Below, in pieces: positions 4,874 through 32,074 of a stretch of 64,000 nt of DNA. Under the pieces are notes generated by a model, which worked only from the letters and a program-made list of their open reading frames with translations, was not told the origin of the DNA and made no database searches. The translations under genes were made by a program, and so were the position numbers. The stretch's first letter is position 1. Each line of letters begins with the position of its first letter. This stretch comes from an uncultured virus (IMG/VR IMGVR_UViG_3300042882_000732). Its lineage: Duplodnaviria > Heunggongvirae > Uroviricota > Caudoviricetes. The stretch spans positions 1-64,000 of IMG/VR virus record IMGVR_UViG_3300042882_000732. One strand, given 5' to 3'.

Positions 4874-4888
4874 GTAATCCCTTTTATA

Positions 4889-15600: not shown

Positions 15601-16174
15601 CCTCGCCAGTAGAAACCAGTCTGATATAATTATTGCTACCCACAAGAACAGTTAATACTCTATCGTTATAATCTCTAATAGTTAAAGCATTAGATGATTG
15701 TATTACTTTAAATTCTAGAAAAATATCTTTTTTAGATGGACTTGGTAATGTTAGAGATATGTCTCCATTAGAAGTATCTACTAAATATATAGCACTTATA
15801 TTATCTAATATTGAGCTACGATCTAATATAATAACATTATTTAATAGTGTATCAAAATAACTTTGATTAGCAAAAACATAAAATTCATTACCAGAATCTG
15901 GAAAGAAAACTGATTTATTTTCATTAGAAGATGATGAAATAGAGTTTCTTTTAACGGAGATATTACCAGCGCCATCAAATACTATTTCTCCAACACCAGT
16001 TTCAAAATATTGATAAGATATATTTCTTGCTATATAAGGTATATAAAAACCAACATGAGTAGAATTTAATGAATTATAATTTTTAAGTTTTGATAAAATT
16101 TTAAAATGATCATTTTCTATCGTAAATGAAAATCCAACATTATCAAATACTTTTATTAGTTTATTATTTATCAT
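12656..16174 (-). CDS. Tail-associated protein with two C-terminal fibronectin type III domains
   Basis: PTAPQNL...VSLSWTAP.SNGG..I..Y....Y.FRVAAQN.VG.G, and a second repeat ending YYYRVSAWN; YLVDTSNGDISLTLP fibre-like motif. Confidence 0.75.
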   Translation of the reverse strand: MINNKLIKVFDNVGFSFTIENDHFKILSKLKNYNSLNSTHVGFYIPYIARNISYQYFETGVGEIVFDGAGNISVKRNSISSSSNENKSVFFPDSGNEFYVFANQSYFDTLLNNVIILDRSSILDNISAIYLVDTSNGDISLTLPSPSKKDIFLEFKVIQSSNALTIRDYNDRVLTVLVGSNNYIRLVSTGEDWVVLNKISESANIQSLSENDSVSMLSNPVGSNYSLQYKYDDTTFGSSQAYWYSTASGQALLLGADNLNDANSVLATSGTNNFLFNKNNAANDFIVYGSGTDNRNLFFSYDGKLGINMPSGVKPSTLLHIVNNLCQNCQEGIRLENRASTYPTNITLYYKPSTNIPANTIVSRLQLSASNSSGIQTNYGKIEARAVSSSHGSERGAIDLIVVSGSTGVKTLNTSVENTILGYPNTKITINNNGNMILSNGSNQIEVGSSSTTVSSETVTITGISYLNTINSQNITSPNIYVSSLSQSGLLTMSNGKIANSQITINSNGSLNLPIPSNRILSTTSNGLVTGIYNTDDYFLTQKDITWNKYSPKSATVCLRQVILVNPISSNEFSVDDQILISLSGTNYYRNIDTITLNGGNQITEMLLDTAVPFGDTNDITIQSITKGGYLSLFRYADNETSDSTSHILSIRPNFSTVFNTSKKDTNFEIYGLNNSPALFVQASGSSVGINTSNLFTIPSGQNVIFQQPSNIPASLTVSGWLYSDNIMVGSASSDVPALVSPGIIESSGIRAKKVQYISLEQIDISGNVISSSTSSIINNKVVTTFDQGIRAYANTGDPGLYLYPKINNALSGNAYGGVSFTTFLDRAKSTASGWSYDRKSKTTINTDTPYILGSLATGTYEANGITVTGYGYLYSDLTVNGIAYASEIVSEDIYLRPAPSTNNTGKYIANAFLTLDRNGKIVSQIPTANYTTPTAPQNLSATQGNGIGNGEVSLSWTAPQSNGGTSILAYILEFSLDSGSTWTRLPVGNYTLNRALSNSTHCSILGLSSLNTYRFRVAAQNNVGIGSFSQNSSAITPASSAPKAVNNITYTRTFNDNNTSSIALSWSASDAGGSAIIGYTIQESTDKGLTWQDYNNTSNLIDDTSETIYGTSSSLDYYYRVSAWNNYNSLNNQSAFAYSYVSGTNPGAPFDTIDSSFSNWDFGMVLFTGVC

Positions 16175-16208
16175 TTAATTTATACCTTATGAAATATACA
16201 AAATATTT

Positions 16209-19200
16209 TTATGATGGTCGTCCCATAATACTTGGTTTAGCGGCACTATTCATGCCTCCTTCAAAAACAGTTTTATCATATTGCATGACGGTGTCTTGGG
16301 CAATATTTTTTGAACTAACAGAAGTATTGTCGTATATATTTTTTTCCATATTACCTTTTATAGATTCTAAACCAATATGGTGAAGTGATGTTGTTTGCGT
16401 AACATTAGCAGATAATGACGTTGGTATAGCATTTGCATGTTCTCCAAATTGAGCGGTGGCTGTTTGGAATGTGTTGATAGATGATGACAAACTTTTTTGT
16501 GCAGCACCAAACTGTTCAGTAAAATTAGCCCCAATTTGCTCTGTATATTCATTAAATTGACCAATAGCATTTGTAACAGCATCCTGTATGGATGATGATA
16601 TATTAGCCGTATCTATACTAACATTATTAGATACACCACCGGCAGAGGATGCGGTTTGTTTAAGTGTCTGTACAACATTAGAAAGAGGTGCTAGTTGTGA
16701 GGCTCCACCAGAAGAATTCATGCCAGTATTTGATAATTTATTTAATAGTTCTGGTAATATATTAGAATTTGATATACTAGCCATTGATCGACCACCAGCA
16801 GCAAGATATTGTGGACCGACTATACCTCCATTGGCCAAATAATTAACAATTCCGCCTCTATTTAAATGACCACTATTAATAGCATTGAGAAGTGGCATAT
16901 GTTTTTTAGTAGCTTGTCTATTTATTACAAATTCTCCTTTAGTTAACATTGCAGGAGTATCATCTGTAGTTCCATTGTTAGCATTAATAAAAGCTCCATT
17001 ATTAGCATATACTAATCCTCCCTTACTATATCCATGGAATTTCATTAATTTTTTTAAAATATTTTCTGCTCTTTTATTACCCTTTACCTTTTCCATATGT
17101 TGCATCAAGGTGCTTAGTAGTTCATATGGGGCTTTTTTGATTTGACTTGCAGAATATCCTTTGCCTCCTGTTATAGCAACTAATCCCTTCGGATCATCAA
17201 CAAATGACTCGATTTCCTTCATTAGTCCTGATAGCTGTATTTTTTTACCTCCAAAAGGATCACCCTTCATTCCAGCAGTTTTAGTTTGAAAAGAGTGGGC
17301 TAATTCATGCTGTACTACTGATGTTTTTGTCTTAGCGTCCTTAAATATCATTTTGTTACCTGAAGTAACCATGCCGTCTGGGGCTTTTACCGGACCTATG
17401 GTCTTAGCAACTTTCTTTTTGGCCTCAGCTAGTGCTTTAGGATCAACAGATACCGATTGCGGTGTAGACTTTTCAACAAATTCTGACAAGAACTGATCTC
17501 TTTTTGCTGGAGTAGCATAATCAGCCAAATCACTAGCTAAATTCTCTTGAACTTGTCTTAGTGTTTTGGTATCAGTAACATCTATAACTTCTGGAAGTGG
17601 TCGTTTGATTGGTAATGTTGTTGCATCTGGTTTTGTTCTGGCCATAAATTCTTCAGCAGTAACTCTTGGCTTGCTGGCTCTGGCAGCAGATCTTGCTTCT
17701 TCTGCACGTTTTGTATATTCTGCTGCCGTAATTCTGGGCTTAGCAGCTGATTTGGCAGCTTCTTGTAAAGGATCTAATATTGGTTGTGATTGTTTTGCTG
17801 ATTTACCAAGTTTAGACATATCCATAGGGTCACTGCGTAATGACGGCACTTTTACTTCTCTCAAATCTTTTAATGATCTAGATAAAGCTTCCCCTCTGCT
17901 TAACCGTCCCATGGACCCTATAGAACCTGTAGCCTCTGAAGGTATTGGCAATTTTTCTACATAATTTTGGATCATTTTAGGAATAGTAGATTCTGTGGCA
18001 CTGGCTATGGATGATCTTTGTGCTGCTTCGTAGGCTCTTTGCGAAACTTTATAGGCTTTTTCTGCAGCTTTGTCCATATCATCCAATCTGCCAGCAACGC
18101 TTCTAACTTTACCAGCTCCAGGAATTGGTAATGGCATAACCGAATCAGCAGTAACATCTCTAATCACATTAGCGGCCCTAACTACGGGCCCTAAAGGTCC
18201 AGCTTCAGAAACATTTCTTTCGTCGAATATCATTCCTGCTGAATTATTTTTAAGTAAAGGATCTGCTTCTAATCCAAAAGGAATACCGGCATAGGTGGCT
18301 AATCTGCCTGTTTGTTCAGCTAGTCTATTAATATCTGAAATACCAGCACCAACAGAATCAGACGCTTGACTTAATGCCTTATCGCCAAAAGCTCTAGCCA
18401 TAGTATCGTCATAACCAAGCACCTTTTGAGTTTCTGCAATGCCTAATGATGCCCCACCCAACAATGCTCCCCCACCTCCGCCAATAATTCTAAAGGGACT
18501 AGTAGCTACTGCAGTAAGATCTCCAATGTATCTGCCTGTAGTTCCAAGACCTCTATAAAAAGAATTACTACTATTTTCAAAACTAAAATCTTTATTTCCA
18601 GCTAGTTTTTCTCTTTCTCTATAAGCATCACGACGAGCATTAATGTCTTTCATGTCTTGACTATCATTACGAGCACGATCTTGTGGTAATGCTCCAACAA
18701 TAGCTTGTGTTAAAGTATCTCCAACATAAGCAGCATTTCCTAGTGGCCCCTCATAATTTTTAGCCCTATCGAATGTTTCTCGTGTTTTTTTCTCTTCGTC
18801 TTTTATTCTTGTATTTTCATTATTACGCCCTACTGATGGATCCATTCTAGTAGCTCTACCAAGAGCATCGGCTGCTGTATCTCCATATGTGGATCTAAAT
18901 GCCGCAGCATATTGTGGTTCCGTCATATTAACAACATGGGAAACCCCTGCCTTAAATCCTTCAGCAGATGCCTCATTTTCTTTTCTTATTCTTGCTTGTC
19001 TGTCAAGATAATCTTGTCTTGCTCCTTGAGCAGCAAAGTAGTCCTCAGCACTAGTATATTGTTTAGCTCCCCATCTTTCAGCATTTTTTCTAGATGAGTA
19101 ATATGATTCTGGCTGACGACCAATAGGATTCATGTTACCAGAAAAATTAACTCTTGCGCTATCTCTTTCTCTTTTTCTCTTGTCTATTTCTTCGTTTGAA

Positions 19201-22200
19201 AAGTCTGGTCGTCCATCTCCGTCGTTGTCTGCTCTGGCTTCATTTAGTCTTTGTTCATAATAGTCTATTACTTTTTTACCTTCGTCTTTTCTTTTTTCCA
19301 CTATGCTTTTTGATCTTTCAGCCTGTGATTGTATGGCATTTTTAGCTGCTGCATTGGCTTCTGCTAATGTTCCGCCATTATTAGCAACTGCATTAAATGC
19401 TCGTCTGCTTGCTGAAGATCCAATAAATTCTTTGGTTAGTCGTTCAGTTTTAGTGGTTTGATCACCAGATGTTGGGGTGGCTATGGAATAATCTGGTGTT
19501 TTTTTATTTAAGGCTTGGTTTATAATATTTGTAGTTAAAGCTGCTTGTCTTTTTTCTCTTGCTGGATTATTCTCTATAGGTCTCTCTATAGGTCCACCAA
19601 AAAGTATTTGTTCCAAAAGGTCTGCTGTTTCTTGATCAGCCTCTGTTGACAATCCTAATGCTAATCCAGCCATTTTTCTCTTTTTAGCCTGATTAGCCTC
19701 ATAAGCTCTATTATTAGCTGTACGATTAACCATTCCTTCTGAAGGATTTCCTGTTTGAACACCTGAAGAGACTGCAGGATCGGCTATGTCAGGTCTTGCA
19801 CTCTGATTTATTCTAGCGACAGTTGCTGGATCAATAGGGTCGGGTTTTCCTCCGTTACTAGTTATTGGAGGCAACGCAGCACTAAATGATAGGGCTCGTA
19901 AACTTCCTCTATTTCTAGGATCAGAGCCTAACTCTTTTAGGGCTGATCTTTCTTCTGATGTTATCTCATTAGACTGAGCACCTTTACGATAGGCACTATT
20001 TACTAAAGAAGAAATATTACGATCTTTTTCTACAGTATACGGGCCTACCTCTCTTTTTATTTGATTAGATTTTAAAGTTGCATATTCTGTTTCTTCTTCT
20101 GAGCTTATTCCTTTGCTTCCTTTAAGCCATAATGATCGTCTTCGTGACTCTTCAGATTTAATTTTTTTTCTCTCATTGATAGTTTCTTGTGTTGGTCCAA
20201 TCTTTATTGCCGCTCCTCTGCCCCAAGGTATTTTTGTCATATCGGGTAGAGGAACTGCTACTGGAGCTGGTTGCTCCATAGAGCTTTGAGTCATTTGATT
20301 ATTTGATGCTTCCGTTTCAGCTTCAGCCGCACTAGCTTTTTCAAATCTTTCTTTAGCTCTTTTCTTTTCTTCATTATAAAAATTAACCCCAACAATACCA
20401 GAGTTAGGATCCTCCTTTATACTGCCATATCCTGCATCGTTAGCACTTCTGAGTTGTGCGTCATTCTGTCTATTATTATAATTATCCCATCTGTTTTGAA
20501 ATTCTGGTTCATATTTTTTAGTTTCTGATTGTCTTTGTTCTTCTGTCATACTTTGCCATTTATTACTACCTACCTGAGATTCTGCCCAACTAGATGATGT
20601 TCTAGAAACTACCTCATCAGGTCTTCTTCCGGCTGCTTCTGACATCATCCATGATTCTTTTTGAGCATCTATTCTTTCTTCTTTTCTTTTTTGTACTTCG
20701 CCACCATTGGCTAAATAATTTACTGGCCCTCCTTTACTATATCCGAATGGTCTAGTAAAATATGCTTGTCTATAATCCATTTGTCCAAATGATCTTGTTA
20801 GATATAATTCTTTTCGACGTTGATAAATCTGTCGTTCTTCATCTGTAATTGTTCCATCTTTATTTAGATCTATATCTTCGTCAATATTAGTTCCTGCTTT
20901 ACCACCCTTTTGTAAATAAACCACTCCACCCTTACTATAATTTCCACTATTAATAGCTTTCAATAATGGTAAATGTTTTTGTGTAGACTTAGAATTGATA
21001 ACAAATTCGCCAGGACTTAACATGGCAGGAACAGTGTCGGTACCTTTAGGCTTAAAATCAATAAGCTTTCCACTACTAGCATATATTAATCCTCCAGATG
21101 ATCTGGCCGCAGCAGGAGCAGGAACAGCCACCCCAGGATTAACTATTCTGTTACCAGCAGCGTCCATACCTATATTAGCATTATTCAGATTTCCTTCGAT
21201 GCTTGCTCTTAAATCATCAATACTAATACGTAAATTATCATTAGAATTTTTTAGTATGGATTGTGATTCTAATAAAGCCAGTTCTCCTTGTGCTTTTGTA
21301 GCATCGGCTCTTAATCCAACAGCTTCTAAATATCTTTCAGCAGCCTGTTGCATAGCAGGATCTGCTTTGCGATCCTCTAGGACAGCCAATGACTGTTGAA
21401 CAAGTGGATTATTTATCATTCCACTTTCTATCGCCATTTGTTTGGTTACTTGTAATTGCTGTTTTTGAAAATATTCTGCTACTGCTTGATCAGCATCTAC
21501 TCCTGGTCTTCCTCGGTTCTGAGCATATTGATTTCTTATCTGTAATTCTTGAGCAGCTCTGAATCCGGGATCCTGCATCAATGATAGTGTTTCTTTTCTT
21601 TGATTAGCAAGAACAGTATTTCCGGCGCGAGTTGCTTCTCTTACATTTCCGGTCTTAAATAATGTTTCATTAAATGCTTTTCTAGCGTCTCTTTGATTAT
21701 ATGCACTATTGAGTCCTCCAGAAAGATTTCGTTGTAATCTAATAAAACTTTGATTAAGTTTATCTGCTTCTTCTGGCGTATTAGTTAATAATTGATTAAC
21801 AAAATTTTGTCGATTATTCTGTAATTCTGCAGTATTTTGCAAGTTGTTGAAAGCTTTATCTACTAATTCTGTACTATTAGCAAGCATATCTAATGCTTCT
21901 CTATTATCTCTTAATTGATCATCTAATTTATTAAGCTGTTCAACATTGTTACGCAAAGCGTCTTTATCTGTAAGGGTATTTTGTTGATTCTGTAGAGTAT
22001 CTCTTTGCTCAGCAAGCATTATTTGTCTATTTTTAATTCCCTGAACAGTTGTTTCACCTCCTGCTAAACCACCAACATCACCCATAATTCTATTAAATTG
22101 TTCATCATATGTTTCACCGTATCCACTCAAGACTTCTCTTAGGTTCATATTGCCTTCGTTAGAGATTTCTCTTGATCTTCTAAAATAGTTTTGAGATTCT

Positions 22201-25200
22201 TTAGCTGCTTTGCTAGCTTCATTCAAGCCCTTAGCAAATTTATCTAATGCTCCTTCTTTGAATGATGATAGACCTTTTATAGAATCTAATAATTTTTTAC
22301 CAAAATCACCTAAAACACTAGTACCTTCTTCTAGTTCTTTTCTAAATTCTGATACTTGCGTAGTATTATCGGCATTGTTATCTTTAGCTTTTTTAGCTAT
22401 AGTTTCTATCCTGGCCGTAGCTATTTGTTTTAATTCATCTTTTTGTTGTCTAGATAAATTAGCATTATTTTCTATTTCATTTTTAGCAGTATCAACTGCT
22501 GCTTTTTTAAGTTCATCTACTCCTGAGCCGGCGCTCTTGTCTAAAACAGTTGCTATGCTTTTTGTTATATTTTTTGGTATGTTTTGTTGTAATTGAGCAC
22601 CGCCAATCAGTTGTTTTCTAAGTCCGTCACTTAATCCTGCTGTGGCACTTTGTAGTGCTGCAGTAAATTCTGCTTCAGAATATGCATTGGGATTTTCTAA
22701 AATATTTCTTTCTCTTAGTTTTGGACCAGAACCTCTGGACTCTCCACGTAATGATGATGCATATTGGTTTGCCGCTTCTACTCTAGCATCAGACTCAAAT
22801 GATATTCTATTAACAGATTCATTTACTATATCTGCTATTTTATCAAAACTTGCTGCTAATCTTCGTCCTGCTTTATCAGCAATTTCCATAGCTCTTGCTA
22901 ATTTTGCAGCTTCTTGAGAAGCTTTTGCTAATTCATCATTAGCTAAAAATGCTTGTTGCGCTGCTGTACCAGCAATAGCTTCTTTACCTTGTGGTCCGGC
23001 AGCCATATATAAAGCTCGTTTTTCAGAATCAGCTAGAATCATGCCTTTTATAGATTCTCTAACTATATTTCCAGCTTCATTAGTAGGATCCATAATTTGA
23101 TCATTAGTGAATCCTTTTGCATATAGCCTTTCTAGATCGGTATATCCAGCATTAGCTATTTTTTGAAAATTTTCTGCTTCTTTTTGAGCATCAACTCTTG
23201 CTTCTTCCATGCCATAAGAGCCTTGTTTGGATTTTGCAAGCGTTACAGGGTCCATGTCTTGGTAGAATGGATTCATACCAACTCCAATTTCTCCAATGGC
23301 CAACAATATTCCTCTGCCAAAATCTGACCAATTACGCTCCGTCTCTGCTTTATTCTTTCCTGTTATTCCTGTATCTGCTGTGCTTTCCAGGGCAGTATCT
23401 GTTAAGCTTTTAATGGTTGATGCTGTTTTTGCTCTAAGTTCAACGTTATTAGCATCTCTGCTTAATTTTTCCAAAGCATTTGATAGATTATCACTAGCAG
23501 CAGATAATTTATCATTTAATAAAGCTCTTGCCATTTCTTGAGCTGCTTTTTTGGCAGTGCCTGAGAAATCATATACAGCATCAGCGCCAGCATACAGTGC
23601 TGTGCCTATAGCAGCAGCAGCTCCTAACATAGGATTTATAGCAGCTAATTGTGCTGATGTTGTTAGACCAACAGACAGTGTTGTTGCTGCTTTATCGATT
23701 CTTGCGCCTGTATCTGCCGCTTGTATTTTGCCTTTATCGGTTTTAGTATCAAATAATGCTGATGCTATGTTGTCTCCTTGTCCAGCAACTAATCCTGCCG
23801 CTAATCCAATGTCGCCCAATCCTCTCTGCATACTTTTTCCTAGATCTCCAGTAAAGTATCTTTCTCTAAATGCTCGATTAATAGGACTATTTCTAGTATC
23901 CATTAATCCAGCAGCTCCAACACCTCGTTCTCCTCTCATTTTTGCCAGATCATTTATAGCTTCTCTTCGTTTGCTAACTTCTTCCTGTGCTAATTTTTTA
24001 GCTTCCTCTGCAGAAGCAACGCTAATACCTCTAACAGTTCCAGCATTCTTATACTCTTCCATTCTCATAGCTATTAACTGCTGATCCATTTGTCTGAGAG
24101 TTTTTCTATCTCTCATAGAATCAGAAATATATTTTTGAATATCATTTCCAGTTATATTTAGATTTTTTAATTCACTTTCTGTTATATTCCCTTTTATGCC
24201 AGTAGAAGTTTTTGTTCCTGTAGCCGCTGCTGTAGCTCTAGAAAATGCTTGCGTTTTAATATCATTTAATTCAGAAGATATAGCTTGGGCGACCTGATCA
24301 GCTAAGTCTGATGGAGATATTGGTTGTTTGGATGATGATACTATATCAGCTTCTATAGCCTTTTTTCTTTTATCTATTAATCGTCGCTCTTCTTTTTCTG
24401 CTAAAGATAATATTTTTTGTTGCGTAGCTCCTGATCCTAATTTTTTACCAACTGAACTTTCTTTAAATCCAGACTCTAAAAATTGACGATTAGTAACATC
24501 AATAAGTCCTTTATTTCTAATATTAGACAATGCCTTTTCAGCTTCTATAATTTTATCAATAGATGCTCCACTAATTTTTAATCTTTCTAGATCTTTATTA
24601 CCAGCTTCTAATACTGCTTGTATAGATAATTGTTTATTTTCATTTAATAAACGATTTAAATACTTCATGCCGTCTCCGGCATCATAAAGAGTGTCCACAA
24701 ATGCTTTTGTATCTTGCAGAATAGATGGGTCTACAGCTATTGTACTAGTATCTATTGAATTTGGGCGATTATTAGTAATATTTTGTGTTCTTCCTAAATT
24801 ACTTGCTATGCTTTGTAATCCAGAAAGAAAGCCATCTACACCTCCACCTAAAGCAAATCTTTGTACTCCTCCTACAATTCCTCCTTTATTGTATCCTTGT
24901 ATTTTATCTGCTTTATTTAATTTTTCTAACTTGCCATATCCTATTTTTTCTGCTGCTTTTTTATTAACAACAAATTCACCAGGAGTTAATAATGCTGGTA
25001 CAGTATCCTGCGCAGACCCACCATTTGCAAATTTTCTTTTATTCTGCATCTTCTTTAGAAGAGACGGATCTATATTTGGACCATATTCATATAGCAGAGA
25101 GGATGCCATATTATCGGCAACTTCTTGTATTTTAGAAAGATTACCAGCTTGCTTAAATTCTGCATAATTACCAATGTTACTACTTTCTTGTTTTAGTCCG

Positions 25201-28200
25201 CCTAATATATTGTATCCAAAACCATTCTTTCGTCTGGAAATTCTAAAATTAATATCTGGATATTGATTTAATATTTTTTGTCTTATTTTTTCAAATTCAT
25301 TTTCTTTACCAAATGCCATTCCTCCATCTTTAAACTGCTGAACTTTCATTCCTTCTATATGACGAATATTTCCACCTAATAATTTATCTTCTTGATCTTT
25401 ACTAAATATTCTATCAATATCATCTATTCTAAATTTTGAAGTTTGTGGGAGAATGAATTCTTTTTCTATTCGTGTTGCTGATCGACTTCTGCTTAGAAAA
25501 TCTGCTCCGCTTTTTCCAGAGACAGGGTCTATATATTTTGATAATGCTTTTATAATATCTTCTTCTGTGGAGGTATCAAATATTGCCTTATCAACATCAA
25601 TAGATGGAATATTTTTATTTCTAATGATACTCAACATTGCACTAGAACCATTTTCTGGCTGAAATACACTAGCTGTATCCGGGGATTCACTAGTTGATAA
25701 TAATGAGCCATTTAAATTAAAGTTTTTACCAATAGCATCAGAAATATCTTTATTAGAGTTTAAAGGATTATTAATTTGAGTTAAAATGGTTTTTAATTTA
25801 CCACCAGCAACAGTGGAATATAATTTACCAGAACGCTTTGAGCCACTCATTGATTCTTGGCTAGTAAACATTTCCAATAAATCTTTTGCAGCATTCTTTG
25901 TGGCATCATACGCCTTTGGAGGATCAGCATGGAAAGTTTTAAGATATTCCATGAAAGAATCATTATCTTCTAAATATCTATTTATAAATTCGCTATCAGT
26001 TCCACCACCAGGAAATGGTCCTGTTCTGTATTTGGCTAATGAGACTAGTTGTTGTGGAGTATATACTTCTCCGCCGTCAGCAAAAGCTGTTACTTTTTCT
26101 GGATCAGGAATGCCGTATTGTTGTCTAAAATATTTTTGAAATTCTTCAACAGCTTTACCTCTACTATTACTATCTATTGTTCTTTTAACTTCTGTTGGAA
26201 TATCAGGATCGATACCAAATATTTTTGCTGCTTTAGGTCCGATACCCATTGGAAAGTCAATTGGTCTTGTTCTTAATGCATCGTCTAATATTGTGGCATC
26301 TGCTGATCCAAAAATTTGTTCTAGTAAAGCACCCTCAATATTTCCTTGTCCTAATGTTTCTCTTTGTTTTTTAGTTAATTCTTTAGGAGTAATACCAAGA
26401 AGCTTTGATGCTCCTTGTACTATTTCTGCTGTTTGTCCACTAAGATAATCAATAACGTTTTGGAATTCTGTTGGTAGTCCTCTTTGTACTATTGAAGCGT
26501 CTATTGATCTTTCTTGGCCAGACGGATCGACTCCAAGATTCCAAGTCTCTGGACCCAATAATCCAGTATATCCTAGCGGATTTAATCCAACTAATCCTAA
26601 TTGTTTGGAAGATAACACAGCATTAGTTGTATCTTCTAGAGCTGTAGCCTTTTGAATTCCTTGTGATTCATTAAATTTGTCTATTAGATAGTCTCTTGTT
26701 GCAATATAGTAAGCGAGCTTATCTTCTTTTGTTTCTGGTCTAAAAGCAGAATTCCAGTATTTTAATTTTCCTCCTTCGGCTGTATCTCTTACTGTTTTTC
26801 CTGAGAATGGGCCAAAACTTGGATCATTTGGTAATCTTTGAGTTCCAAATCTTTTTAGAATCTCTGATCCTTGTGTTGGTAATATTCCAGAAGACTTTTT
26901 GACCTGGGTGGCTTTTTCTACATTTTTTAGTATTGCCTCTTCTAGTCCAGAAGGCATAGCTGTTGGAACTCCACCAAACTCACCAGCCATCTGTTCTGAA
27001 ATTTGTGCTGCTATGGCCTCTCTGGTTATGTCTGATGGTTGCGCAGATACGGCGGATTTTCTTGATGGGTCTAACCCATAAGTTTCTGGATATTTGGCAG
27101 ATAGGGCGCTTATTATATTAAATGCTCTATAGCCGAATGCTCCTTTAGATACTCTATCTCTTTTGTCTCTTATCTGCTTAACTTGCTCAGCTATTTCTGG
27201 ATAATTTTTCTTTAGATCAGCACTAACATTACCATATGGACCACCAGGAGCATTTGATAATATTTCTGTAACCTCAGCATTGGATCGTACTTTATCTTGA
27301 TCAACAAACTTTTGTATTTCTTCGATGAGCATAGGAACCATAGTGCTACGATTACGTAATTGTGCTCTATTGCCCATTAATATTGATGCTATATCAGGAT
27401 TCATTAAACTAGTAAGTGTTTTATCGTCACCATTAAATAATGCGTCTCTAACTGCAGTAGCACTAATATCTTCTATTCTAGGAATATCTGTAACGTCTAT
27501 TCCTGCTCTTTGGTATTTGCCCAATGTTTTATCGTCTTTACCAGAAGTTATTGCCATGGCTCCTTTTAATCTGGCGAATTTTCTTCTATCTCCAGCATCA
27601 GTAACTTCCATAAATTTTGGTAAACCACCACCCGTCTGGCTTTGAGTGCTAATCATAGCATTTCCAAAATTCATTTGGCTAAATAAGGTTCTTATGTCTG
27701 ATGGGAAAATACCATATCGTGCAGCGTGGTCTATGCCTTCTTTATCAACAATCATTGGAAGGTCAGGAGCAACACTAACAAGAATATCTTCTAAAGAAGA
27801 GTTTGGGTTCTTTGCTAACATGTTTTCTAATAAAGTATCTAAAGCTCCTCTATGGCCTCTTGTTGGTGGGGCAAAACCACCCATATAAAATCCACCAGCC
27901 TGAACTATTTCTGGTAGTTCGCTTTCTCTTTTACGTCTTAAACCGAAACTATCTTTTTTTCTTCCTAATACTGTGGCTCTTTTGCCAAGTTCATCTCGTA
28001 ATATGGTTTCTTCCAGACCAAAATCAATATCAGCTGCTCTTGTGGTTCCTGGTTTACGACCATACAATCCTTCTCCTGTAATGTCTCTGCTCTCTCTATT
28101 TGACCTAACTCTATCTTGTTCCTCTCTGCTATTAGAGCTTAATACATATGCTCTATCAACATCTTTTAAATAAGCATCTAATTTAGTCTGACTAGCTGTC

Positions 28201-31061
28201 GATGTTAATACTATAACTTCATTAACTTTGTCTATATCTTCAGGCGTTAATATTTGAGAGCGAATTGTTTTTCTTAAAGTAGCATCATCATTAGCTCCCT
28301 TTCCGGTTGCTAAACTGCTTTTTCCACTTCCAGCAGCTCCAGCAATAGCTCTAAACCTAGATAGCGATCCACTTTTTCTAGCATTGCCTGCCAATTCTCC
28401 AAGTTTTGTTGTATAGTCACTAACATCAGTTATTCCAAGCTTTTCCATTGCTGGCCTAACTATCGCCGCATTAGCCTCATCTCTTAGTACGTCCGTATCA
28501 ACTACTCCAATTTTTCTTTCTACTTTTCCTCCAACCATGAACTTAGCCAATCCTTTAGTCTCTGTCATTTTCTTAATAAAACCAATATCAGAGATAGTTT
28601 TTAATGGCCGGGAGTCGTCTTGTATTATATTCCCTGAACTGTTAAACCTATCCTTAGATCCTGCTGGCATATAGTTAAACATATAATCATCTTTAATAAC
28701 CCTATCCCATGATGACTTATTAGTATTGCCGAATCCTGAATTTTTCTTCATTATCTCTAGTCTATTTGCTAGTTTATCTGCTTGAATAATGTCTTGACCT
28801 TTTTTAGTTCCACTATATTTTGCAACATTCTCTCCTACTAATTTTTTATTAAGAGCACCAATTTCCGCCATTGGTCTGCCATAGTAATCTACTTTATTAG
28901 CGTCGATAAAAATTTTAGCTAATTTTTCTTTACCAAGTCCACTTATAAAATCTATAGTTATATCTTTGGCTCTTTTGCCTTTCTCTCTATTACTAGCATA
29001 TGCCGGACCTTTTCCTCCTTGACTAGCATACTCTTCTCTTTCTTTTTTTGATGCTTTAATTTCAAAAGCATCTATTCCTTCAAGTCTGGATGTGACTTTA
29101 AATTTACCTTTTTCACTAGGATAAATTAAATCGCCAGTTAGTTTTTTAAAACGTTTATTAACTAGTGTTTGTGTTGGATCAACCAATAAATTTATACTAT
29201 CTGCATCATAAGCTTTGAGCCTACCAGCATACTGCTTGTTAGACTTAGAATATTCTTGAACATCAATATCGTCATATAGTTTACCTCCACCCCCAAATCT
29301 TTTTCTTCTATTTGATTTTCCTGCTCGTATACTTCCACCACTTCCATACTTATTCATACTATGAAGACTATCAGTACCAATAGTTTCAACAGCTTTTTTA
29401 CGTATAACAAATTCTCCTGGCTCTAACATTGCTGGTACAGTATCTCCACTACCAGTACCAGGAACAACACCACCTCGTGCGAATTTTCTTATAACTCCGC
29501 CATTAGCTTTACCATCTGGTCCTCTTTTAACTCCTGTGGCAAATCCTGTAGTAAATTCTGTTAATGCTTTAAATCCCTTAAATGCTGCAAGTACTGCTAA
29601 TGCTGGTAGAATTCCTTTAACAGCATCTGCTACTTTTATCAAACCACTAGTTAGAGACAACGCTCCTCTGATTAAACTTTGAAATCCTTTGGATTGACCT
29701 ATTTCACGAAATAGTGAGAAAAATTCTTCACGAACTTTACTTATTTGATTAGCTAAACTTAATTGTGCTGTTGCTGCATCTTTAGCTAGCGAACCTTGTC
29801 CTTGTTGAGCAACTTTTAACGCCTGTTGAGCCACACTAAATTGTTGAATTAATGGAATAACTTTACCAATTTGTCTAAATCCACCAAGTTCTTCAACTAT
29901 TCTTGAAAAGTCCAAACTTCTAGGGTCTATTTTACCTAATCCTTTACTTAACAATTCGACAGCCTTATACGCTCCAACGAACTTACCCTCAGCATCTGTT
30001 AAGTTAACACCAAACTCTTTTAGGGCGTCTATCGTTGTTCCTCTTTGGATACGAGTAAATATTGTTCGTAATCCAGTAGCAATAGTTTCAGCGCTTTCAC
30101 GGGTAGTTGCTCTAACACTGGTAAATACCGAAATAAATTCATTTAAAGCGTCTTTTCCTTCGCTTACCCCTTTACTCGCAGTAGCGAATACGCTACCTGT
30201 TCTTTGCACGGCGGTAATGATGTCACTAGATTCTACTGCGAACCTTGCTGCCACGGTATTAACCGCACCTAATGATGCCTCCAAATCAGCAGCACTAATA
30301 CCAAACTGTCTCATTATAGCAATACTACCTTCCACAGTCTCATTCATATTATCAAATGACGGAGCTAAACTACTAAGTGCTAAGGCTTTTAAAGCTTTCT
30401 CAGTTTCTCTGGCACTTAAACCAGCCTGAGCTAATGTTGATGCTACTTGAGTTAGCTCTTTAGAACTAACACCAAATTCTACAGCTAAATTACTAATTTG
30501 AGATTGTAGTTTGGATAATCCGGCAGCAGATTCTCCAGTAACCTGTTGTAATTTTACAAGCTCTTTATCATAATCAATAAAAGCCTGTATACCATTATTT
30601 ATACTATTTGTTACTCCATATATAACACTTGTAACAGCACTAAATGCAACGAATCTTCTAACTGCTAAACCAGCTTGCTTGCCGAATTCCTGCATCTCTG
30701 TTGCGGCATTTTGCAATCCTCCAGATGTTGATGAGGATACTTTATTTAATTTAGCAATTGCTGATGAAGTTTGATTAATTTGTTGAGGGACATTGTTAAT
30801 TTTAACAGAATTTACGCTATTACCAAAAGCCTTTATTGCTGATGTGGCAGCATTGGCTGATTTGACAGTTGAGGCAAAATTAGCATTCAAAACTTTTAAA
30901 GAAGACGATAATGCTGCAACATTTTTTGATGCTGCCGGATCAAGTTTAAATTGTACATTTGCATTAAGAGCGCCAAGATCTTTTTTAATTTGAGCAGCTA
31001 TTTGCTTAACGTTTGTTGGACCTTTAAGATTCAACTGTGCTGTTAGATTAAAAGTTGCCAT
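16209..31061 (-). CDS. Giant tape-measure protein (TP901-family N-terminal domain) carrying multiple enzymatic cargo domains
   Basis: The N-terminal about 500 aa has TMP-like content (YDKELVKLQQVTG, FGVSSKEL, TTRESAETIATGLRTIFTRI, VEELGGFRQIGK). It also has hydrophobic Ala/Gly segments, long helical regions, and lies downstream of the tail tube and chaperone-like genes. Confidence 0.88.
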   Translation of the reverse strand: MATFNLTAQLNLKGPTNVKQIAAQIKKDLGALNANVQFKLDPAASKNVAALSSSLKVLNANFASTVKSANAATSAIKAFGNSVNSVKINNVPQQINQTSSAIAKLNKVSSSTSGGLQNAATEMQEFGKQAGLAVRRFVAFSAVTSVIYGVTNSINNGIQAFIDYDKELVKLQQVTGESAAGLSKLQSQISNLAVEFGVSSKELTQVASTLAQAGLSARETEKALKALALSSLAPSFDNMNETVEGSIAIMRQFGISAADLEASLGAVNTVAARFAVESSDIITAVQRTGSVFATASKGVSEGKDALNEFISVFTSVRATTRESAETIATGLRTIFTRIQRGTTIDALKEFGVNLTDAEGKFVGAYKAVELLSKGLGKIDPRSLDFSRIVEELGGFRQIGKVIPLIQQFSVAQQALKVAQQGQGSLAKDAATAQLSLANQISKVREEFFSLFREIGQSKGFQSLIRGALSLTSGLIKVADAVKGILPALAVLAAFKGFKALTEFTTGFATGVKRGPDGKANGGVIRKFARGGVVPGTGSGDTVPAMLEPGEFVIRKKAVETIGTDSLHSMNKYGSGGSIRAGKSNRRKRFGGGGKLYDDIDVQEYSKSNKQYAGRLKAYDADSINLLVDPTQTLVNKRFKKLTGDLIYPSEKGKFKVTSRLEGIDAFEIKASKKEREEYASQGGKGPAYASNREKGKRAKDITIDFISGLGKEKLAKIFIDANKVDYYGRPMAEIGALNKKLVGENVAKYSGTKKGQDIIQADKLANRLEIMKKNSGFGNTNKSSWDRVIKDDYMFNYMPAGSKDRFNSSGNIIQDDSRPLKTISDIGFIKKMTETKGLAKFMVGGKVERKIGVVDTDVLRDEANAAIVRPAMEKLGITDVSDYTTKLGELAGNARKSGSLSRFRAIAGAAGSGKSSLATGKGANDDATLRKTIRSQILTPEDIDKVNEVIVLTSTASQTKLDAYLKDVDRAYVLSSNSREEQDRVRSNRESRDITGEGLYGRKPGTTRAADIDFGLEETILRDELGKRATVLGRKKDSFGLRRKRESELPEIVQAGGFYMGGFAPPTRGHRGALDTLLENMLAKNPNSSLEDILVSVAPDLPMIVDKEGIDHAARYGIFPSDIRTLFSQMNFGNAMISTQSQTGGGLPKFMEVTDAGDRRKFARLKGAMAITSGKDDKTLGKYQRAGIDVTDIPRIEDISATAVRDALFNGDDKTLTSLMNPDIASILMGNRAQLRNRSTMVPMLIEEIQKFVDQDKVRSNAEVTEILSNAPGGPYGNVSADLKKNYPEIAEQVKQIRDKRDRVSKGAFGYRAFNIISALSAKYPETYGLDPSRKSAVSAQPSDITREAIAAQISEQMAGEFGGVPTAMPSGLEEAILKNVEKATQVKKSSGILPTQGSEILKRFGTQRLPNDPSFGPFSGKTVRDTAEGGKLKYWNSAFRPETKEDKLAYYIATRDYLIDKFNESQGIQKATALEDTTNAVLSSKQLGLVGLNPLGYTGLLGPETWNLGVDPSGQERSIDASIVQRGLPTEFQNVIDYLSGQTAEIVQGASKLLGITPKELTKKQRETLGQGNIEGALLEQIFGSADATILDDALRTRPIDFPMGIGPKAAKIFGIDPDIPTEVKRTIDSNSRGKAVEEFQKYFRQQYGIPDPEKVTAFADGGEVYTPQQLVSLAKYRTGPFPGGGTDSEFINRYLEDNDSFMEYLKTFHADPPKAYDATKNAAKDLLEMFTSQESMSGSKRSGKLYSTVAGGKLKTILTQINNPLNSNKDISDAIGKNFNLNGSLLSTSESPDTASVFQPENGSSAMLSIIRNKNIPSIDVDKAIFDTSTEEDIIKALSKYIDPVSGKSGADFLSRSRSATRIEKEFILPQTSKFRIDDIDRIFSKDQEDKLLGGNIRHIEGMKVQQFKDGGMAFGKENEFEKIRQKILNQYPDINFRISRRKNGFGYNILGGLKQESSNIGNYAEFKQAGNLSKIQEVADNMASSLLYEYGPNIDPSLLKKMQNKRKFANGGSAQDTVPALLTPGEFVVNKKAAEKIGYGKLEKLNKADKIQGYNKGGIVGGVQRFALGGGVDGFLSGLQSIASNLGRTQNITNNRPNSIDTSTIAVDPSILQDTKAFVDTLYDAGDGMKYLNRLLNENKQLSIQAVLEAGNKDLERLKISGASIDKIIEAEKALSNIRNKGLIDVTNRQFLESGFKESSVGKKLGSGATQQKILSLAEKEERRLIDKRKKAIEADIVSSSKQPISPSDLADQVAQAISSELNDIKTQAFSRATAAATGTKTSTGIKGNITESELKNLNITGNDIQKYISDSMRDRKTLRQMDQQLIAMRMEEYKNAGTVRGISVASAEEAKKLAQEEVSKRREAINDLAKMRGERGVGAAGLMDTRNSPINRAFRERYFTGDLGKSMQRGLGDIGLAAGLVAGQGDNIASALFDTKTDKGKIQAADTGARIDKAATTLSVGLTTSAQLAAINPMLGAAAAIGTALYAGADAVYDFSGTAKKAAQEMARALLNDKLSAASDNLSNALEKLSRDANNVELRAKTASTIKSLTDTALESTADTGITGKNKAETERNWSDFGRGILLAIGEIGVGMNPFYQDMDPVTLAKSKQGSYGMEEARVDAQKEAENFQKIANAGYTDLERLYAKGFTNDQIMDPTNEAGNIVRESIKGMILADSEKRALYMAAGPQGKEAIAGTAAQQAFLANDELAKASQEAAKLARAMEIADKAGRRLAASFDKIADIVNESVNRISFESDARVEAANQYASSLRGESRGSGPKLRERNILENPNAYSEAEFTAALQSATAGLSDGLRKQLIGGAQLQQNIPKNITKSIATVLDKSAGSGVDELKKAAVDTAKNEIENNANLSRQQKDELKQIATARIETIAKKAKDNNADNTTQVSEFRKELEEGTSVLGDFGKKLLDSIKGLSSFKEGALDKFAKGLNEASKAAKESQNYFRRSREISNEGNMNLREVLSGYGETYDEQFNRIMGDVGGLAGGETTVQGIKNRQIMLAEQRDTLQNQQNTLTDKDALRNNVEQLNKLDDQLRDNREALDMLANSTELVDKAFNNLQNTAELQNNRQNFVNQLLTNTPEEADKLNQSFIRLQRNLSGGLNSAYNQRDARKAFNETLFKTGNVREATRAGNTVLANQRKETLSLMQDPGFRAAQELQIRNQYAQNRGRPGVDADQAVAEYFQKQQLQVTKQMAIESGMINNPLVQQSLAVLEDRKADPAMQQAAERYLEAVGLRADATKAQGELALLESQSILKNSNDNLRISIDDLRASIEGNLNNANIGMDAAGNRIVNPGVAVPAPAAARSSGGLIYASSGKLIDFKPKGTDTVPAMLSPGEFVINSKSTQKHLPLLKAINSGNYSKGGVVYLQKGGKAGTNIDEDIDLNKDGTITDEERQIYQRRKELYLTRSFGQMDYRQAYFTRPFGYSKGGPVNYLANGGEVQKRKEERIDAQKESWMMSEAAGRRPDEVVSRTSSSWAESQVGSNKWQSMTEEQRQSETKKYEPEFQNRWDNYNNRQNDAQLRSANDAGYGSIKEDPNSGIVGVNFYNEEKKRAKERFEKASAAEAETEASNNQMTQSSMEQPAPVAVPLPDMTKIPWGRGAAIKIGPTQETINERKKIKSEESRRRSLWLKGSKGISSEEETEYATLKSNQIKREVGPYTVEKDRNISSLVNSAYRKGAQSNEITSEERSALKELGSDPRNRGSLRALSFSAALPPITSNGGKPDPIDPATVARINQSARPDIADPAVSSGVQTGNPSEGMVNRTANNRAYEANQAKKRKMAGLALGLSTEADQETADLLEQILFGGPIERPIENNPAREKRQAALTTNIINQALNKKTPDYSIATPTSGDQTTKTERLTKEFIGSSASRRAFNAVANNGGTLAEANAAAKNAIQSQAERSKSIVEKRKDEGKKVIDYYEQRLNEARADNDGDGRPDFSNEEIDKRKRERDSARVNFSGNMNPIGRQPESYYSSRKNAERWGAKQYTSAEDYFAAQGARQDYLDRQARIRKENEASAEGFKAGVSHVVNMTEPQYAAAFRSTYGDTAADALGRATRMDPSVGRNNENTRIKDEEKKTRETFDRAKNYEGPLGNAAYVGDTLTQAIVGALPQDRARNDSQDMKDINARRDAYREREKLAGNKDFSFENSSNSFYRGLGTTGRYIGDLTAVATSPFRIIGGGGGALLGGASLGIAETQKVLGYDDTMARAFGDKALSQASDSVGAGISDINRLAEQTGRLATYAGIPFGLEADPLLKNNSAGMIFDERNVSEAGPLGPVVRAANVIRDVTADSVMPLPIPGAGKVRSVAGRLDDMDKAAEKAYKVSQRAYEAAQRSSIASATESTIPKMIQNYVEKLPIPSEATGSIGSMGRLSRGEALSRSLKDLREVKVPSLRSDPMDMSKLGKSAKQSQPILDPLQEAAKSAAKPRITAAEYTKRAEEARSAARASKPRVTAEEFMARTKPDATTLPIKRPLPEVIDVTDTKTLRQVQENLASDLADYATPAKRDQFLSEFVEKSTPQSVSVDPKALAEAKKKVAKTIGPVKAPDGMVTSGNKMIFKDAKTKTSVVQHELAHSFQTKTAGMKGDPFGGKKIQLSGLMKEIESFVDDPKGLVAITGGKGYSASQIKKAPYELLSTLMQHMEKVKGNKRAENILKKLMKFHGYSKGGLVYANNGAFINANNGTTDDTPAMLTKGEFVINRQATKKHMPLLNAINSGHLNRGGIVNYLANGGIVGPQYLAAGGRSMASISNSNILPELLNKLSNTGMNSSGGASQLAPLSNVVQTLKQTASSAGGVSNNVSIDTANISSSIQDAVTNAIGQFNEYTEQIGANFTEQFGAAQKSLSSSINTFQTATAQFGEHANAIPTSLSANVTQTTSLHHIGLESIKGNMEKNIYDNTSVSSKNIAQDTVMQYDKTVFEGGMNSAAKPSIMGRPS
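17080..17400 (-). other. HExxH zincin-like metallopeptidase motif region within TMP
   Basis: SVVQHELAHSFQ (HELAH at 17295-17309) with downstream APYELLS glutamate; boundaries approximate. Confidence 0.55.
25340..26065 (-). other. VIP2/C3-like ADP-ribosyltransferase domain within TMP
   Basis: LAKYRTG...FINRYL, LYST (YRG position), LLSTSES, EKEFILP.TSKFRI; bounded by AFADGG and QFKDGG. Confidence 0.7.
26100..26400 (-). other. Possible PD-(D/E)xK nuclease-like domain within TMP
   Basis: GNIEGALLEQ...RPIDFP...PTEVKRT gives an E...D...ExK spacing. Confidence 0.4.
27380..27900 (-). other. HIGH-superfamily nucleotidyltransferase (NMNAT/cytidylyltransferase-like) domain within TMP
   Basis: GGFAPPTRGH (GxFxPxTxGH) and C-terminal ISATAVR (SxTxxR). 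Confidence 0.75.
27930..28370 (-). other. P-loop kinase-like domain within TMP
   Basis: Walker A AIAGAAGSGKSS; lid-like RxxxRxxR (RVRSNRESR). Confidence 0.65.
28815..29230 (-). other. Staphylococcal nuclease (thermonuclease)-like domain within TMP
   Basis: YDADSI (cf. DGDT), RLEGIDAFE (cf. RLxGIDxPE), DYYGRPMA (cf. DxYGRxLA), NKKLVGENVA (cf. NxxLVxxGxA). Confidence 0.75.
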
Positions 31062-31090
31062 AATATTATCCTATAAAGAATTAACGATCC

Positions 31091-31135
31091 AAAAAAATAT
31101 TCCCAACCACAAGGTTAAACTCATGGTTAGGAATA
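31091..31135 (-). terminator. Intrinsic terminator upstream of TMP
   Basis: Minus strand TATTCCTAACCATGAG-loop-CTTGTGGTTGGGAATA followed by T7. Confidence 0.7.
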
Positions 31136-31165
31136 CCTATTAAATTAATATTATTATTAATCTTA

Positions 31166-32074
31166 TTATGAACTAACAGGCTCCGTAGATTCTGCAACAG
31201 TGCTTTTTGGTGGTTCAGAAACTGGGGGTTCTTTTGCTGTCTCTGTTTGTACTGCTGTTGGTTCATCTTTTTTGTCTTCTTCTAAAATAATTGGATTTCC
31301 ATTATCATCAAGGAACGGCTGAGGGTCAACCAGATAATCTCCATCAGAATTTACCTTGTTACCATATTTATCAACAAAATTCCCTTCTTCATCTATGAAT
31401 CTACCACTTTCATCTACTAGTCTACCTTCAGCATCAACGAGCCTACCTTTTTTATCAACAAGTCGCAATTTATCGTCAACAAATTTAAATTTCTTTAAGA
31501 ATTTGTTTTCTGGCAGATTGCTTTCATAGTCATTATCCAATCCATATAACATATTAGCCAAATTTTGCGCTCCTAACAAACCAACCTGATCGGTTGACCT
31601 ATTAAGATAATCTTCCATATTATTAAAGTATGGTTGTTTAGTATCATTATACACCACACAAACACTAACCAAATAATTAAACCTGGCATTATCAGCTTGA
31701 CCTTCGGCACTATGATTATCTAAACTAGTTCTAACACTAATTAGATCTCGTATCTCATCTCTAATGCCCTTCATTTTAATAGCTAGGTCTTTGGCTTCAT
31801 TTAAACTAAATCCACCCTTTGCTAGTCTTTTTTCACCGTCTAAAAGTTCTTTTTGTAAAGTGGTGAATTTAGCCTGTTTCTCATCATTCCATAAACCTTG
31901 ATCTTCTAAAAGATCGTCTAACTTTGCTCTTACAACACTTTTGCTTTTTATAGCATCAGTGAAAGCTTGATTATACACTTTTTGTGCTTCTCTTTGATCA
32001 TTTAATGATGGTGTCTTGACAACAAATTCTTTTTCTGTACCGTCTATAGTAACCTTAAAATTTTTAGTTTTCAT
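31166..32074 (-). CDS. Putative tail assembly chaperone
   Basis: Immediately upstream of the TMP; helical; C-terminal 7-residue DxxG(R/N)hh repeats and acidic tail; AGGAG RBS. Confidence 0.5.
   Translation of the reverse strand: MKTKNFKVTIDGTEKEFVVKTPSLNDQREAQKVYNQAFTDAIKSKSVVRAKLDDLLEDQGLWNDEKQAKFTTLQKELLDGEKRLAKGGFSLNEAKDLAIKMKGIRDEIRDLISVRTSLDNHSAEGQADNARFNYLVSVCVVYNDTKQPYFNNMEDYLNRSTDQVGLLGAQNLANMLYGLDNDYESNLPENKFLKKFKFVDDKLRLVDKKGRLVDAEGRLVDESGRFIDEEGNFVDKYGNKVNSDGDYLVDPQPFLDDNGNPIILEEDKKDEPTAVQTETAKEPPVSEPPKSTVAESTEPVSS

Follow-up and report, generated by a model that had tools for sequence, protein, structure and literature searches.

Tape-measure proteins (TMPs) are commonly seen as combined rulers and channel formers, with a cell-wall hydrolase as their only cargo, if any. 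Whether a TMP can also carry a set of enzymes directed against the host cell is the question raised by a giant TMP gene of an uncultured virus of the class Caudoviricetes. The gene lies in a 64,000-nucleotide stretch of DNA (hereafter, the window), which spans positions 1 to 64,000 of the 71,393-bp IMG/VR virus record IMGVR_UViG_3300042882_000732 (CheckV completeness estimate, 48%). The original prediction, made from the DNA letters, held that a single open reading frame (ORF) joins a TMP N-terminus to several modules resembling cytoplasm-acting enzymes, which would be injected at infection. Our analysis favors, with a probability of roughly 0.55, the reading that this gene encodes a cassette-based TMP polyprotein of an uncultured freshwater long-tailed phage, which doubles as a polyvalent carrier and would deliver its cargo to the host. 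Support comes from the ORF itself, its TMP membership, the mosaic family to which it belongs, the nucleotidyltransferase fold of one module, the affinity of another to ADP-ribosyltransferases (ARTs), and linkers homologous to segments of structurally solved TMPs.

An ORF of this size in a metagenome-derived record could be an artefact, namely, a chimeric contig or a read-through of several genes. The frame is, however, open through 4,950 codons with no internal stop. A sequencing-run search with a 10-kb part of the window identified at least 24 runs from 24 studies containing 86-100% of the sampled words. These 24 runs are filed as lake-water or freshwater metagenomes from 2016-2024, and 10 of them were flagged as a possible source of the DNA; no holder of the sequence among the sequencing runs listed was an RNA data set. 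The contig check used four runs that were not flagged in this way. In all four of these independent lake-metagenome runs, each of the 30 bins across positions 16000-31300 was covered, with zero insertions, deletions or joints listed, and contig pieces of up to 3.9 kb span the module junctions (21634-25516, 22246-26006, 25613-27453 and 27080-30032). Speaking for an artefact, and so against our reading, is a low-depth contig (2.8) from run X11 that connects position 22301 to 31141 with 18 other letters in between. There are also 26 loose ends where contigs part from the window (17 shown), several of them near module borders (for example, at ~26165, 26917, 25259 and 16860). The simplest reading of these diverging contigs suggests co-occurring relatives with other cassettes, that is, variants present in the same lakes. 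Because four independent runs cover all bins without insertions or deletions and contigs bridge the junctions, an artefact can be rejected as exceedingly improbable. Moreover, four full-length relatives with 49-91% identity retain single ORFs of 5,565-5,882 amino acids (aa), and a protein library contains dozens of comparable ORFs. A 100% identical ORF is also found on an 88-kb record (L003), which is possibly not independent of the window. Thus, the giant ORF is real and uninterrupted, as had been claimed, and the chimeric assembly that the original prediction had itself raised as a danger is not what the reads contain.

Several lines of comparison place the N-terminus of the protein among TMPs. 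The PF10145 profile matches aa 188-380 (E 1.1e-21; 78.1 bits against a cut-off of 33.2), TIGR01760 matches aa 147-492 (97.2 bits against a cut-off of 28.8) over 341 of its 349 model positions, and five PHROG TMP families match as well. Furthermore, aa 31-497 share 22-26% identity with TMPs of the SPbeta YomI type. These profile matches identify the N-terminus as a genuine tape-measure core of the TP901 type, in agreement with the original prediction. Other parts of the protein appear to belong to the same scaffold. The long Ala-rich segment, to which each of the four full-length relatives shows 49-52% identity, is probably the ruler and channel part, and the C-terminal region would be the tip-proximal end. 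The gene is located downstream of the terminase, capsid and fibre genes and, in five of five genomes, is followed by a conserved fn3-bearing ORF of 1,150-1,172 aa, which has no family match and is probably a distal-tail or hub protein.

The scaffold is punctuated by two kinds of repeated elements. The first is a Gly-rich stretch followed by D-T-V-P-A-M-L-x-x-G-E-F-V, present in four copies (aa 540, 2019, 3342 and 4700). When a profile built from these four linkers was compared with 177,635 distinct PDB sequences, two TMPs ranked first and second, namely, gp16 (1,699 aa, two copies of the element; E 0.039) and lambda gpH (aa 741-784; E 0.055). In this respect, the protein resembles processed TMPs of the lambda gpH/T5 pb2 type, in which a Gly-rich region precedes xPAxxxxGEFVxxKxA (gpH aa 741-784). 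However, lambda has a single element near the C-terminus and no enzyme domain, whereas here there are four elements with enzyme-like modules between them. Cleavage within the Gly-rich C-terminal region of gpH, by a protease described as unknown, produces gpH* and gpHC, and gpH* then makes a trans-envelope channel (PMC12617516). Because the four linkers match the gpH element that adjoins this cleavage region, a processed polyprotein is plausible, and by analogy the repeated gpH-type elements can be considered candidate processing or docking sites.

The second element is the motif Phi-x-x-G-G-x-[VIAL] (hereafter, the GG motif), which occurs 17 times in the ORF, whereas 500 shuffles contain 1.6 copies on average and never more than 7. 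All copies are located at segment ends, with the sole exception of one at aa 1058, inside the nucleotidyltransferase described below. In 78 relatives, the mean is 13 copies, compared with 2.0 in shuffles. Across the family, the start of module M1 coincides with a GG motif in 51 of 70 cases, the end of M3 does so in 21 of 24, and each end of M5 in 10 of 10, against a background of 491 of 3,950 random positions near a GG motif. The segments between these motifs, which the original prediction had proposed to analyze one by one, are thus real units with strongly enriched boundaries.

These features bear on the possibility that the protein does not occupy the tail lumen at all, but is a head-packaged or tail-associated polyvalent protein with a borrowed TMP-like N-terminus, in a phage with a separate ruler. 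Its size and globular content would be hard to accommodate in a tube, most of the neighboring genes have no recognizable family, and for polyvalent proteins, delivery together with the DNA has been proposed (PMC5512222). We nevertheless consider this quite improbable, given that the TP901 core is matched over its full length as an equivalog-level domain, that it contains four copies of the gpH-type C-terminal element, and that the gene appears to be part of the tail module, always ahead of the same conserved ORF, with no second TMP candidate noticed in the window.

The cassette-based organization emerges most clearly from comparison with relatives. A whole-protein scan of IMG/VR yielded, besides the identical record, four relatives with single ORFs of 5,882, 5,882, 5,642 and 5,565 aa. 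A HMMER search with aa 841-2004 against 1.84 billion representative sequences retrieved 103 proteins at E<=1e-3, nearly all of 2.4-7.3 thousand residues. The N-terminal core is common to 79 of these 103 library relatives (the best 40 listed all have E 1e-175 or lower), and near-full-length M1 is present in 70. An IMG/VR scan with the core alignment identified 241 of 365 pattern matches as relatives; of these loci, 78 were retained; their contigs reach 243 kb, and the smallest closed ORF is 1,565 aa long. All cluster members that were looked up are annotated as 'hypothetical protein', and a tblastn search of M1 and the capsid protein against 50,697 GenBank phages produced zero matches.

In blastp comparisons, aa 1-595, aa 2004-3388 and the C-terminus are present in all four full-length relatives, whereas aa 596-848 are absent from one of the four, aa 1650-1914 are present in just two, and aa 4429-4694 in the other two. 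The modules also vary in frequency among locus ORFs (Table 1). One locus (L072) encodes the ART-M5 cassette, recognized at E 3e-141, without M1. Small family members retain the core, the first two linkers with a short first bay between them, and a helical remainder. Judging from these alignments, this is a large uncultured family of TMPs, of 1.5-7.3 thousand residues, with a conserved core and shuffled internal cassettes. The expectation of the original prediction that the cargo would vary on a conserved scaffold is therefore borne out.

Table 1. Features of the giant TMP and the adjacent ORF. Residue numbers refer to the TMP, positions to the window; the last column gives the number of locus ORFs with the module, out of 71, each read to ~3,850 aa.
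Feature	Residues (aa)	Positions	Strand	Characteristics	Locus ORFs
Giant TMP ORF		16209..31061	(-)	4950 aa + stop codon	
TMP core	1-520	29502..31061	(-)	PF10145 and TIGR01760 above cut-off; hydrophobic at ~aa 130-150 and 474-501	
Linker 1	521-595	29277..29501	(-)	Gly-rich + PAMLxxGEFV, lambda gpH-type	
SNase-like module, then helices	596-840	28542..29276	(-)	Lead only	4/71
M1 (P-loop domain and NTase, next two rows)					21/71
P-loop domain	845-1050	27912..28529	(-)	Walker A, aa 908-915	
HIGH-motif NTase + helical C-terminal domain	1051-1345	27027..27911	(-)	TxGH, aa 1067-1070; ISxTxxR, aa ~1199-1205	
M2	1346-1520	26502..27026	(-)	In 24 library relatives; pLDDT block means mostly 64-94	
M3	1521-1660	26082..26501	(-)	Most widespread cassette; NxEG...IDFPxGLG...IPTEVKR	46/71
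ART-like module	1665-1909	25335..26069	(-)	LYS...LLSTS...ExEFILPxxSKF; Arg replaced by Ser	7/71
M5	1916-2010	25032..25316	(-)	Small alpha/beta domain	9/71
Linker 2	2011-2075	24837..25031	(-)	gpH-type element	
Long Ala-rich segment	2076-3320	21102..24836	(-)	Hydrophobic stretch, aa 2472-2496; from composition and hydropathy	
Linker 3	3321-3390	20892..21101	(-)	gpH-type element	
EF-hand segment	3391-3455	20697..20891	(-)	One canonical loop, aa 3396-3409; between GG motifs	
Charged segment	3456-4430	17772..20696	(-)	Few hydrophobic residues; varies between relatives	
HExxH module	4431-4680	17022..17771	(-)	HELAH, aa 4585-4589 (17295-17309)	
Linker 4	4681-4750	16812..17021	(-)	gpH-type element	
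C-terminal region	4751-4950	16212..16811	(-)	Q/N/S/T-rich; kept in relatives	
fn3 ORF directly after TMP		12656-16174	(-)	1,172 aa; kept at 1,151-1,155 aa in four full-length relatives	

All motif sets that the original prediction had named can be located in the ORF, among them Walker A at aa 908, TxGH at aa 1067 and HExxH at aa 4585. The best characterized cassette is M1, which consists of a P-loop domain and a nucleotidyltransferase (NTase) with the HIGH motif. We modeled aa 596-1345 with AlphaFold (mean predicted local distance difference test score, pLDDT, 76.8); the block means of M1 are mostly 81-96. A profile of 27 M1 sequences matched MJ0951/UPF0348, a HIGH NTase of the TmcAL type (E 4e-8), and an NMNAT (E 2e-4), and a Foldseek search with the model retrieved NadM (E 4e-4); a shallow profile of 4 sequences had found nothing meaningful in the PDB. 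The first signature, TRGH in the window, is kept as TxGH in 12 of 12 divergent relatives and aligns with HxGH of the solved enzymes. In the second, S1200, T1202 and R1205 are nearly invariant among the 27 sequences and align with GISGTKIRE of MJ0951. Both signatures are retained across relatives that share just 30-40% identity. The only Pfam trace of the NTase is HIGH_NTase1_ass (E 0.059 in the window, 0.025 in relative L007). Together, the profile and the predicted fold confirm the assignment of this domain to the HIGH-motif NTase superfamily (NMNAT/PPAT/TmcAL-like), and the prediction of such an enzyme holds at this level; because scores with the Pfam family are below the cut-off, we do not place it in any single family.

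The Walker A motif of the P-loop domain, GxxGSGKS, is invariant in all four close relatives, and 11 of 12 divergent relatives also have it; the model is a confident alpha/beta fold. The P-loop half of the predicted 'P-loop kinase' thus stands, but likeness to a kinase amounts to a borderline zeta-toxin-like match. For M1, a PPAT/NMNAT fold beside a zeta-like kinase may point to chemistry of NAD or CoA-type cofactors, and the likeness to TmcAL to tRNA modification; RNA repair is a further candidate function.

The ART-like module of the window matches PF03496 at E 0.0041 (16.9 bits; cut-off 23.4), and a scan of the window's genome targeted at this family hits positions 25386-25730 (E 9.3e-4, 13.7 bits). 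When eight ART-like modules were scanned separately, seven matched PF03496, the best of them, in a relative, above the cut-off (E 1.9e-7). A profile of eight ART-like modules retrieved 14 PDB sequences (E<=10), of which six were deposited under the name ADP-ribosyltransferase or iota toxin Ia, and six more (SpvB twice, Tre1 twice, ExoT and XopAI) we take to be ARTs as well. The STS and ExE motifs (aa 1789 and 1866 in the window) are present in 18 of 18 ART-like modules, in register with CdtA and iota Ia. The likeness to ARTs of the C3/iota Ia/CdtA/VIP2 type (PF03496) extends to an aromatic-hydrophobic-STS string and to ExE followed by hydrophobic-LP-xx-S-x-F. Judged by these motifs and profile scores, the module is a putative C3/iota-type ART-family domain of uncertain activity.

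The remaining modules are less tractable. In the predicted thermonuclease (SNase), strings of the pattern D..D / R / D..E / R occur at aa 620-740, and YD[AG]D[SG] / RLxGxDxxE / [YF]GRP occur in the window and in relatives, with matching strings conserved in five divergent sequences; we assume that these correspond to the D, R, D, E and R residues of the nuclease. A language-model search (Atlas) provided a lead to SNase clusters (0.86), with all ten best named matches in the SNase family or clan. There was no match to PF00565 in whole-protein, per-module or targeted scans or with three SNase-like modules of relatives, and no PDB-profile match, so that the predicted thermonuclease is a lead from motif strings and Atlas. 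M3, found in 61 library relatives, contains a conserved D...ExK string and has pLDDT block means of 64-93; a fold search, limited by its 665-residue multi-domain model, retrieved no nuclease. The motif behind the predicted PD-(D/E)xK nuclease is thus present and conserved, but fold and profile matches are missing. Of the predicted EF-hand-like loops, one canonical loop is seen; EF-hand_5 matches it below the cut-off (E 0.0061, 16.4 bits; cut-off 25.9), and a partner hand was not seen.

The single HExxH motif compares with 0.0033 expected from the composition of the ORF; because His is so rare (merely 16 of 4,950 residues), this conserved motif stands out. HELxH is kept in both aligned relatives (L006 and L007), and at least one HExxH is present in 38 of 77 long family proteins (that of the window included), in a few recurring types. 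No named family or PDB match was obtained for the module with Atlas, a shallow profile, Pfam or a targeted scan with PF18818; Atlas returned unnamed viral clusters, and its scores for LPD (LPD1, LPD23) and peptidase families (0.76-0.77) are at chance level. Hence, of the predicted HExxH peptidase, the motif is conserved and enriched family-wide, but the family match is lacking, and we consider the module a candidate zincin peptidase, as suggested by its motif. When smaller proteins consisting of the SNase-like or HExxH module alone were sought by word index, the matches were all fragments of these giant proteins themselves.

At least four HExxH contexts recur in the family: LYHE[LM]THQL, LAHE[ST]FHD[IV]QGYL, TVAHETGHLAD, and that of the window, HEL[AG]H[SL]FQ. 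From this recurrence, there would be several distinct families of zincin-like cassettes, none of which Pfam recognized in the scanned relatives.

A number of results weigh against a TMP loaded with active enzymes. First, family recognition fails broadly: the whole-protein Pfam scan recovers the TMP domain alone, and 15 window modules scanned separately yield nothing above the cut-off. The NTase has no match to CTP_transf_like or HIGH_NTase1 in whole-protein, per-module or targeted Pfam scans, and for M2 and M3, neither solved structures, viral predicted folds nor a PDB profile search gave a match. Targeted scans of the window's genome with PF00565 (SNase), PF01467 (CTP_transf_like), PF05636 (HIGH_NTase1), PF06414 (Zeta_toxin) and PF18818 (MPTase-PolyVal) gave no first-look candidate; these negatives are uninformative because the structurally confirmed NTase was missed as well. 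Along the same lines, whole-protein phmmer against the PDB returned zero matches, and Pfam scans of relatives in large pieces yielded the TMP core and weak noise only. Second, in the ART-like module, the position of the catalytic Arg is occupied by Ser, Thr or Ala in all 18 modules, although the search pattern permitted Arg; this position (LY[S/T/A], ~40 aa upstream of STS) was assigned by spacing and from a Y-R motif. With the catalytic Arg replaced, the module may be inactive. Its AlphaFold model is unusable (pLDDT block means 26-58), and that of the SNase-like part is of low confidence (34-78). Of the VIP2-like ART originally predicted, there remain the PF03496 affinity and the STS and ExE motifs, but neither the canonical Arg nor a confidently predicted fold. 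Third, the linker match to gpH is weak (E 0.04-0.055). No sheath, tube, chaperone or Dit/Tal family was recognized among the window genes, and a host search in genome collections yielded three short contigs of metagenome-assembled genomes with inconsistent labels and a weak Flavobacterium match, which does not allow a host call. Finally, folded domains of 20-55 kDa in 3-6 copies exceed the ~4-nm lumen of the tube. The objection of bulk, which the original prediction had raised against itself, thus retains its force.

Some of these observations would be expected of a pure ruler, in which all 4,950 aa are extended to measure a tail of ~0.7 micrometre and the modules are decayed or structural passengers. 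Great length is not by itself unusual in a TMP: gp96 of the Thermus phage P23-45 has 5,002 aa (PMC10770324), the tail of the Thermus phage P74-26 measures nearly 1 micrometre (PMC10034513), and tails of 500 nm occur in Gordonia phages whose TMP genes are 9 kb long (PMC4919401). About half of the window's TMP consists of long Ala-rich helical stretches, and the ART-like module lacks the canonical Arg. However, decayed passengers are difficult to reconcile with M1, which is predicted to form two compact alpha/beta domains with high pLDDT and catalytic signatures kept at low overall identity, or with a conserved HExxH motif 300-fold above chance. Among members with cores at least 55% identical, globular cassettes are gained and lost such that lengths vary between 1,565 aa and over 7,000 aa, and the enzyme fused to the P23-45 TMP is itself functional (PMC10770324). 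A pure ruler is therefore, in our assessment, unlikely.

Alternatively, the modules might form an envelope-penetration toolkit, acting in the capsule, biofilm, periplasm or membrane in place of muralytic domains, with no role in takeover or anti-defence. Zeta-type kinases target a cell-wall precursor, and SNase-like nucleases, like Ca-binding loops, are typically found in secreted proteins. No peptidoglycan hydrolase was found in the window TMP or in 15 scanned relatives, so that another way through the wall would be needed, and the known cargo of TMPs consists mostly of such hydrolases (PMC12617516). Such a toolkit is nonetheless not a likely solution: NTases, P-loop kinases and ARTs require ATP or NAD+, which are cytoplasmic, and the Pfam scans gave no signal of a glycosidase, amidase or peptidoglycan peptidase family.

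We therefore return to the TMP polyprotein with host-directed cargo, for which the following scenario can be outlined. The scaffold (core, helical and hydrophobic segments, and C-terminal end) would be broken by bays holding interchangeable globular modules and delimited by Phi-x-x-G-G-x-V motifs and the four Gly-rich/PAxLxxGEFV elements. In the window, the bays would hold the SNase-like, P-loop and HIGH NTase, M2, M3, ART-like and M5 modules, the Ca-loop and the zincin-like HExxH module. TMPs leave the tail at infection; the protein would exit the tail first and might then be cleaved at some of the linkers, possibly by its own HExxH module. Enzymes directed at nucleotides, NAD or RNA would in this way reach the host envelope or cytoplasm before phage gene expression, where they could serve takeover or pre-empt defence. 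To pass, the modules would have to travel unfolded or stay outside the narrow lumen.

A bolder version of this scenario is possible but doubtful. It sees in the lake-phage TMP a programmable injection polyprotein, whose linkers and GG motifs are cut by the embedded zincins, freeing up to ~8 enzymes within seconds of adsorption. The commonest unit, in which a zeta-like kinase is joined to the HIGH adenylyltransferase, would act either on a nucleotide cofactor of the NAD+/CoA type, by rebuilding or rewiring it, or on tRNA, by modification or repair, and so disarm abortive-infection defences before phage transcription, and the Arg-less ART-like module would be a new catalytic variant.

Among known systems, the closest parallel is P23-45 gp96, a TMP fused to a virion RNA polymerase, an arrangement that its authors call 'a previously unsuspected association' (PMC10770324). 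Both TMPs comprise about 5,000 aa, and in P23-45 a cytoplasm-acting enzyme is proposed to work at the TMP pore during DNA entry (PMC10770324). P23-45, however, has a single, N-terminal RNA polymerase, whereas in the protein studied here the TMP core is N-terminal and several modules occupy internal bays. Pfam scans gave no RNA polymerase signal in the giant TMP; no direct sequence comparison with P23-45 was made. In view of the P23-45 fusion, the architecture is less unprecedented than the original prediction had assumed, but its non-muralytic, enzyme-like modules hold.

Polyvalent proteins of phages and conjugative elements offer another parallel, being huge, shuffled polypeptides with unrelated effectors, among them an ART, nucleases and a zincin thought to be self-processing, that are delivered with the DNA (PMC5512222). 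The difference is that here the carrier is the TMP itself; the founding paper has 0 occurrences of tape-measure proteins (PMC5512222). None of the Pfam LPD and MPTase-PolyVal families matches the giant TMP in whole-protein, per-module or targeted scans. TMPs of the SPbeta YomI and mycobacteriophage type likewise combine a TP901-type core with catalytic domains, but their cargo is a cell-wall transglycosylase or peptidase, neither of which was found here or in the 15 relatives. A virion-delivered ART is exemplified by Alt of phage T4.

In the open-access papers and preprints, we found no description of a multi-effector TMP, and the P23-45 RNA polymerase is the sole documented cytoplasm-acting TMP enzyme that we found in the open-access literature. 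If our reading is right, a large and environmentally persistent phage family (at least 241 IMG/VR loci) uses its TMP as the carrier of shuffled, mostly unrecognizable enzyme cassettes, merging the concepts of 'polyvalent protein' and 'tape measure'. It would provide a natural model for the passage of large cargo through a siphophage-type tail, with a defined linker motif as a candidate processing signal, and a catalogue of candidate first-strike effectors invisible to Pfam, including M1, M2, M3, M5 and several HExxH families. Engineering of phage- or tailocin-based protein delivery is a possible use.

Other genes in the window provide some further context. The terminase is ~25% identical to those of Bacillus siphoviruses and the Microcystis phage MaeS. 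Amid the tail-fibre genes is a sulfotransferase gene (43564-44394, minus strand; PF13469, E 1.6e-14), and an 884-aa ORF (2219-4873, minus strand), one of the clustered large ORFs that lie downstream of the TMP gene, contains a domain of the FGE-sulfatase type (E 4.4e-8). These two genes may be involved in the recognition or modification of sulfated glycans at the host surface. Positions 47985-51852 (minus strand) encode a 234-aa ORF with an Mtd_N (major tropism determinant) N-terminus and a 1,035-aa ORF with repeated BppL_N, and an adjoining 1,199-aa ORF (44367-47966) has a weak BppL_N match only, below the cut-off (E 0.00084). Beside the terminase gene, there are genes for an ERCC4-type nuclease (60476-60955), a nucleotide-sugar epimerase (61220-62206) and a sigma-factor-like protein (62996-63679), all recognized by PHROG and located on the minus strand.

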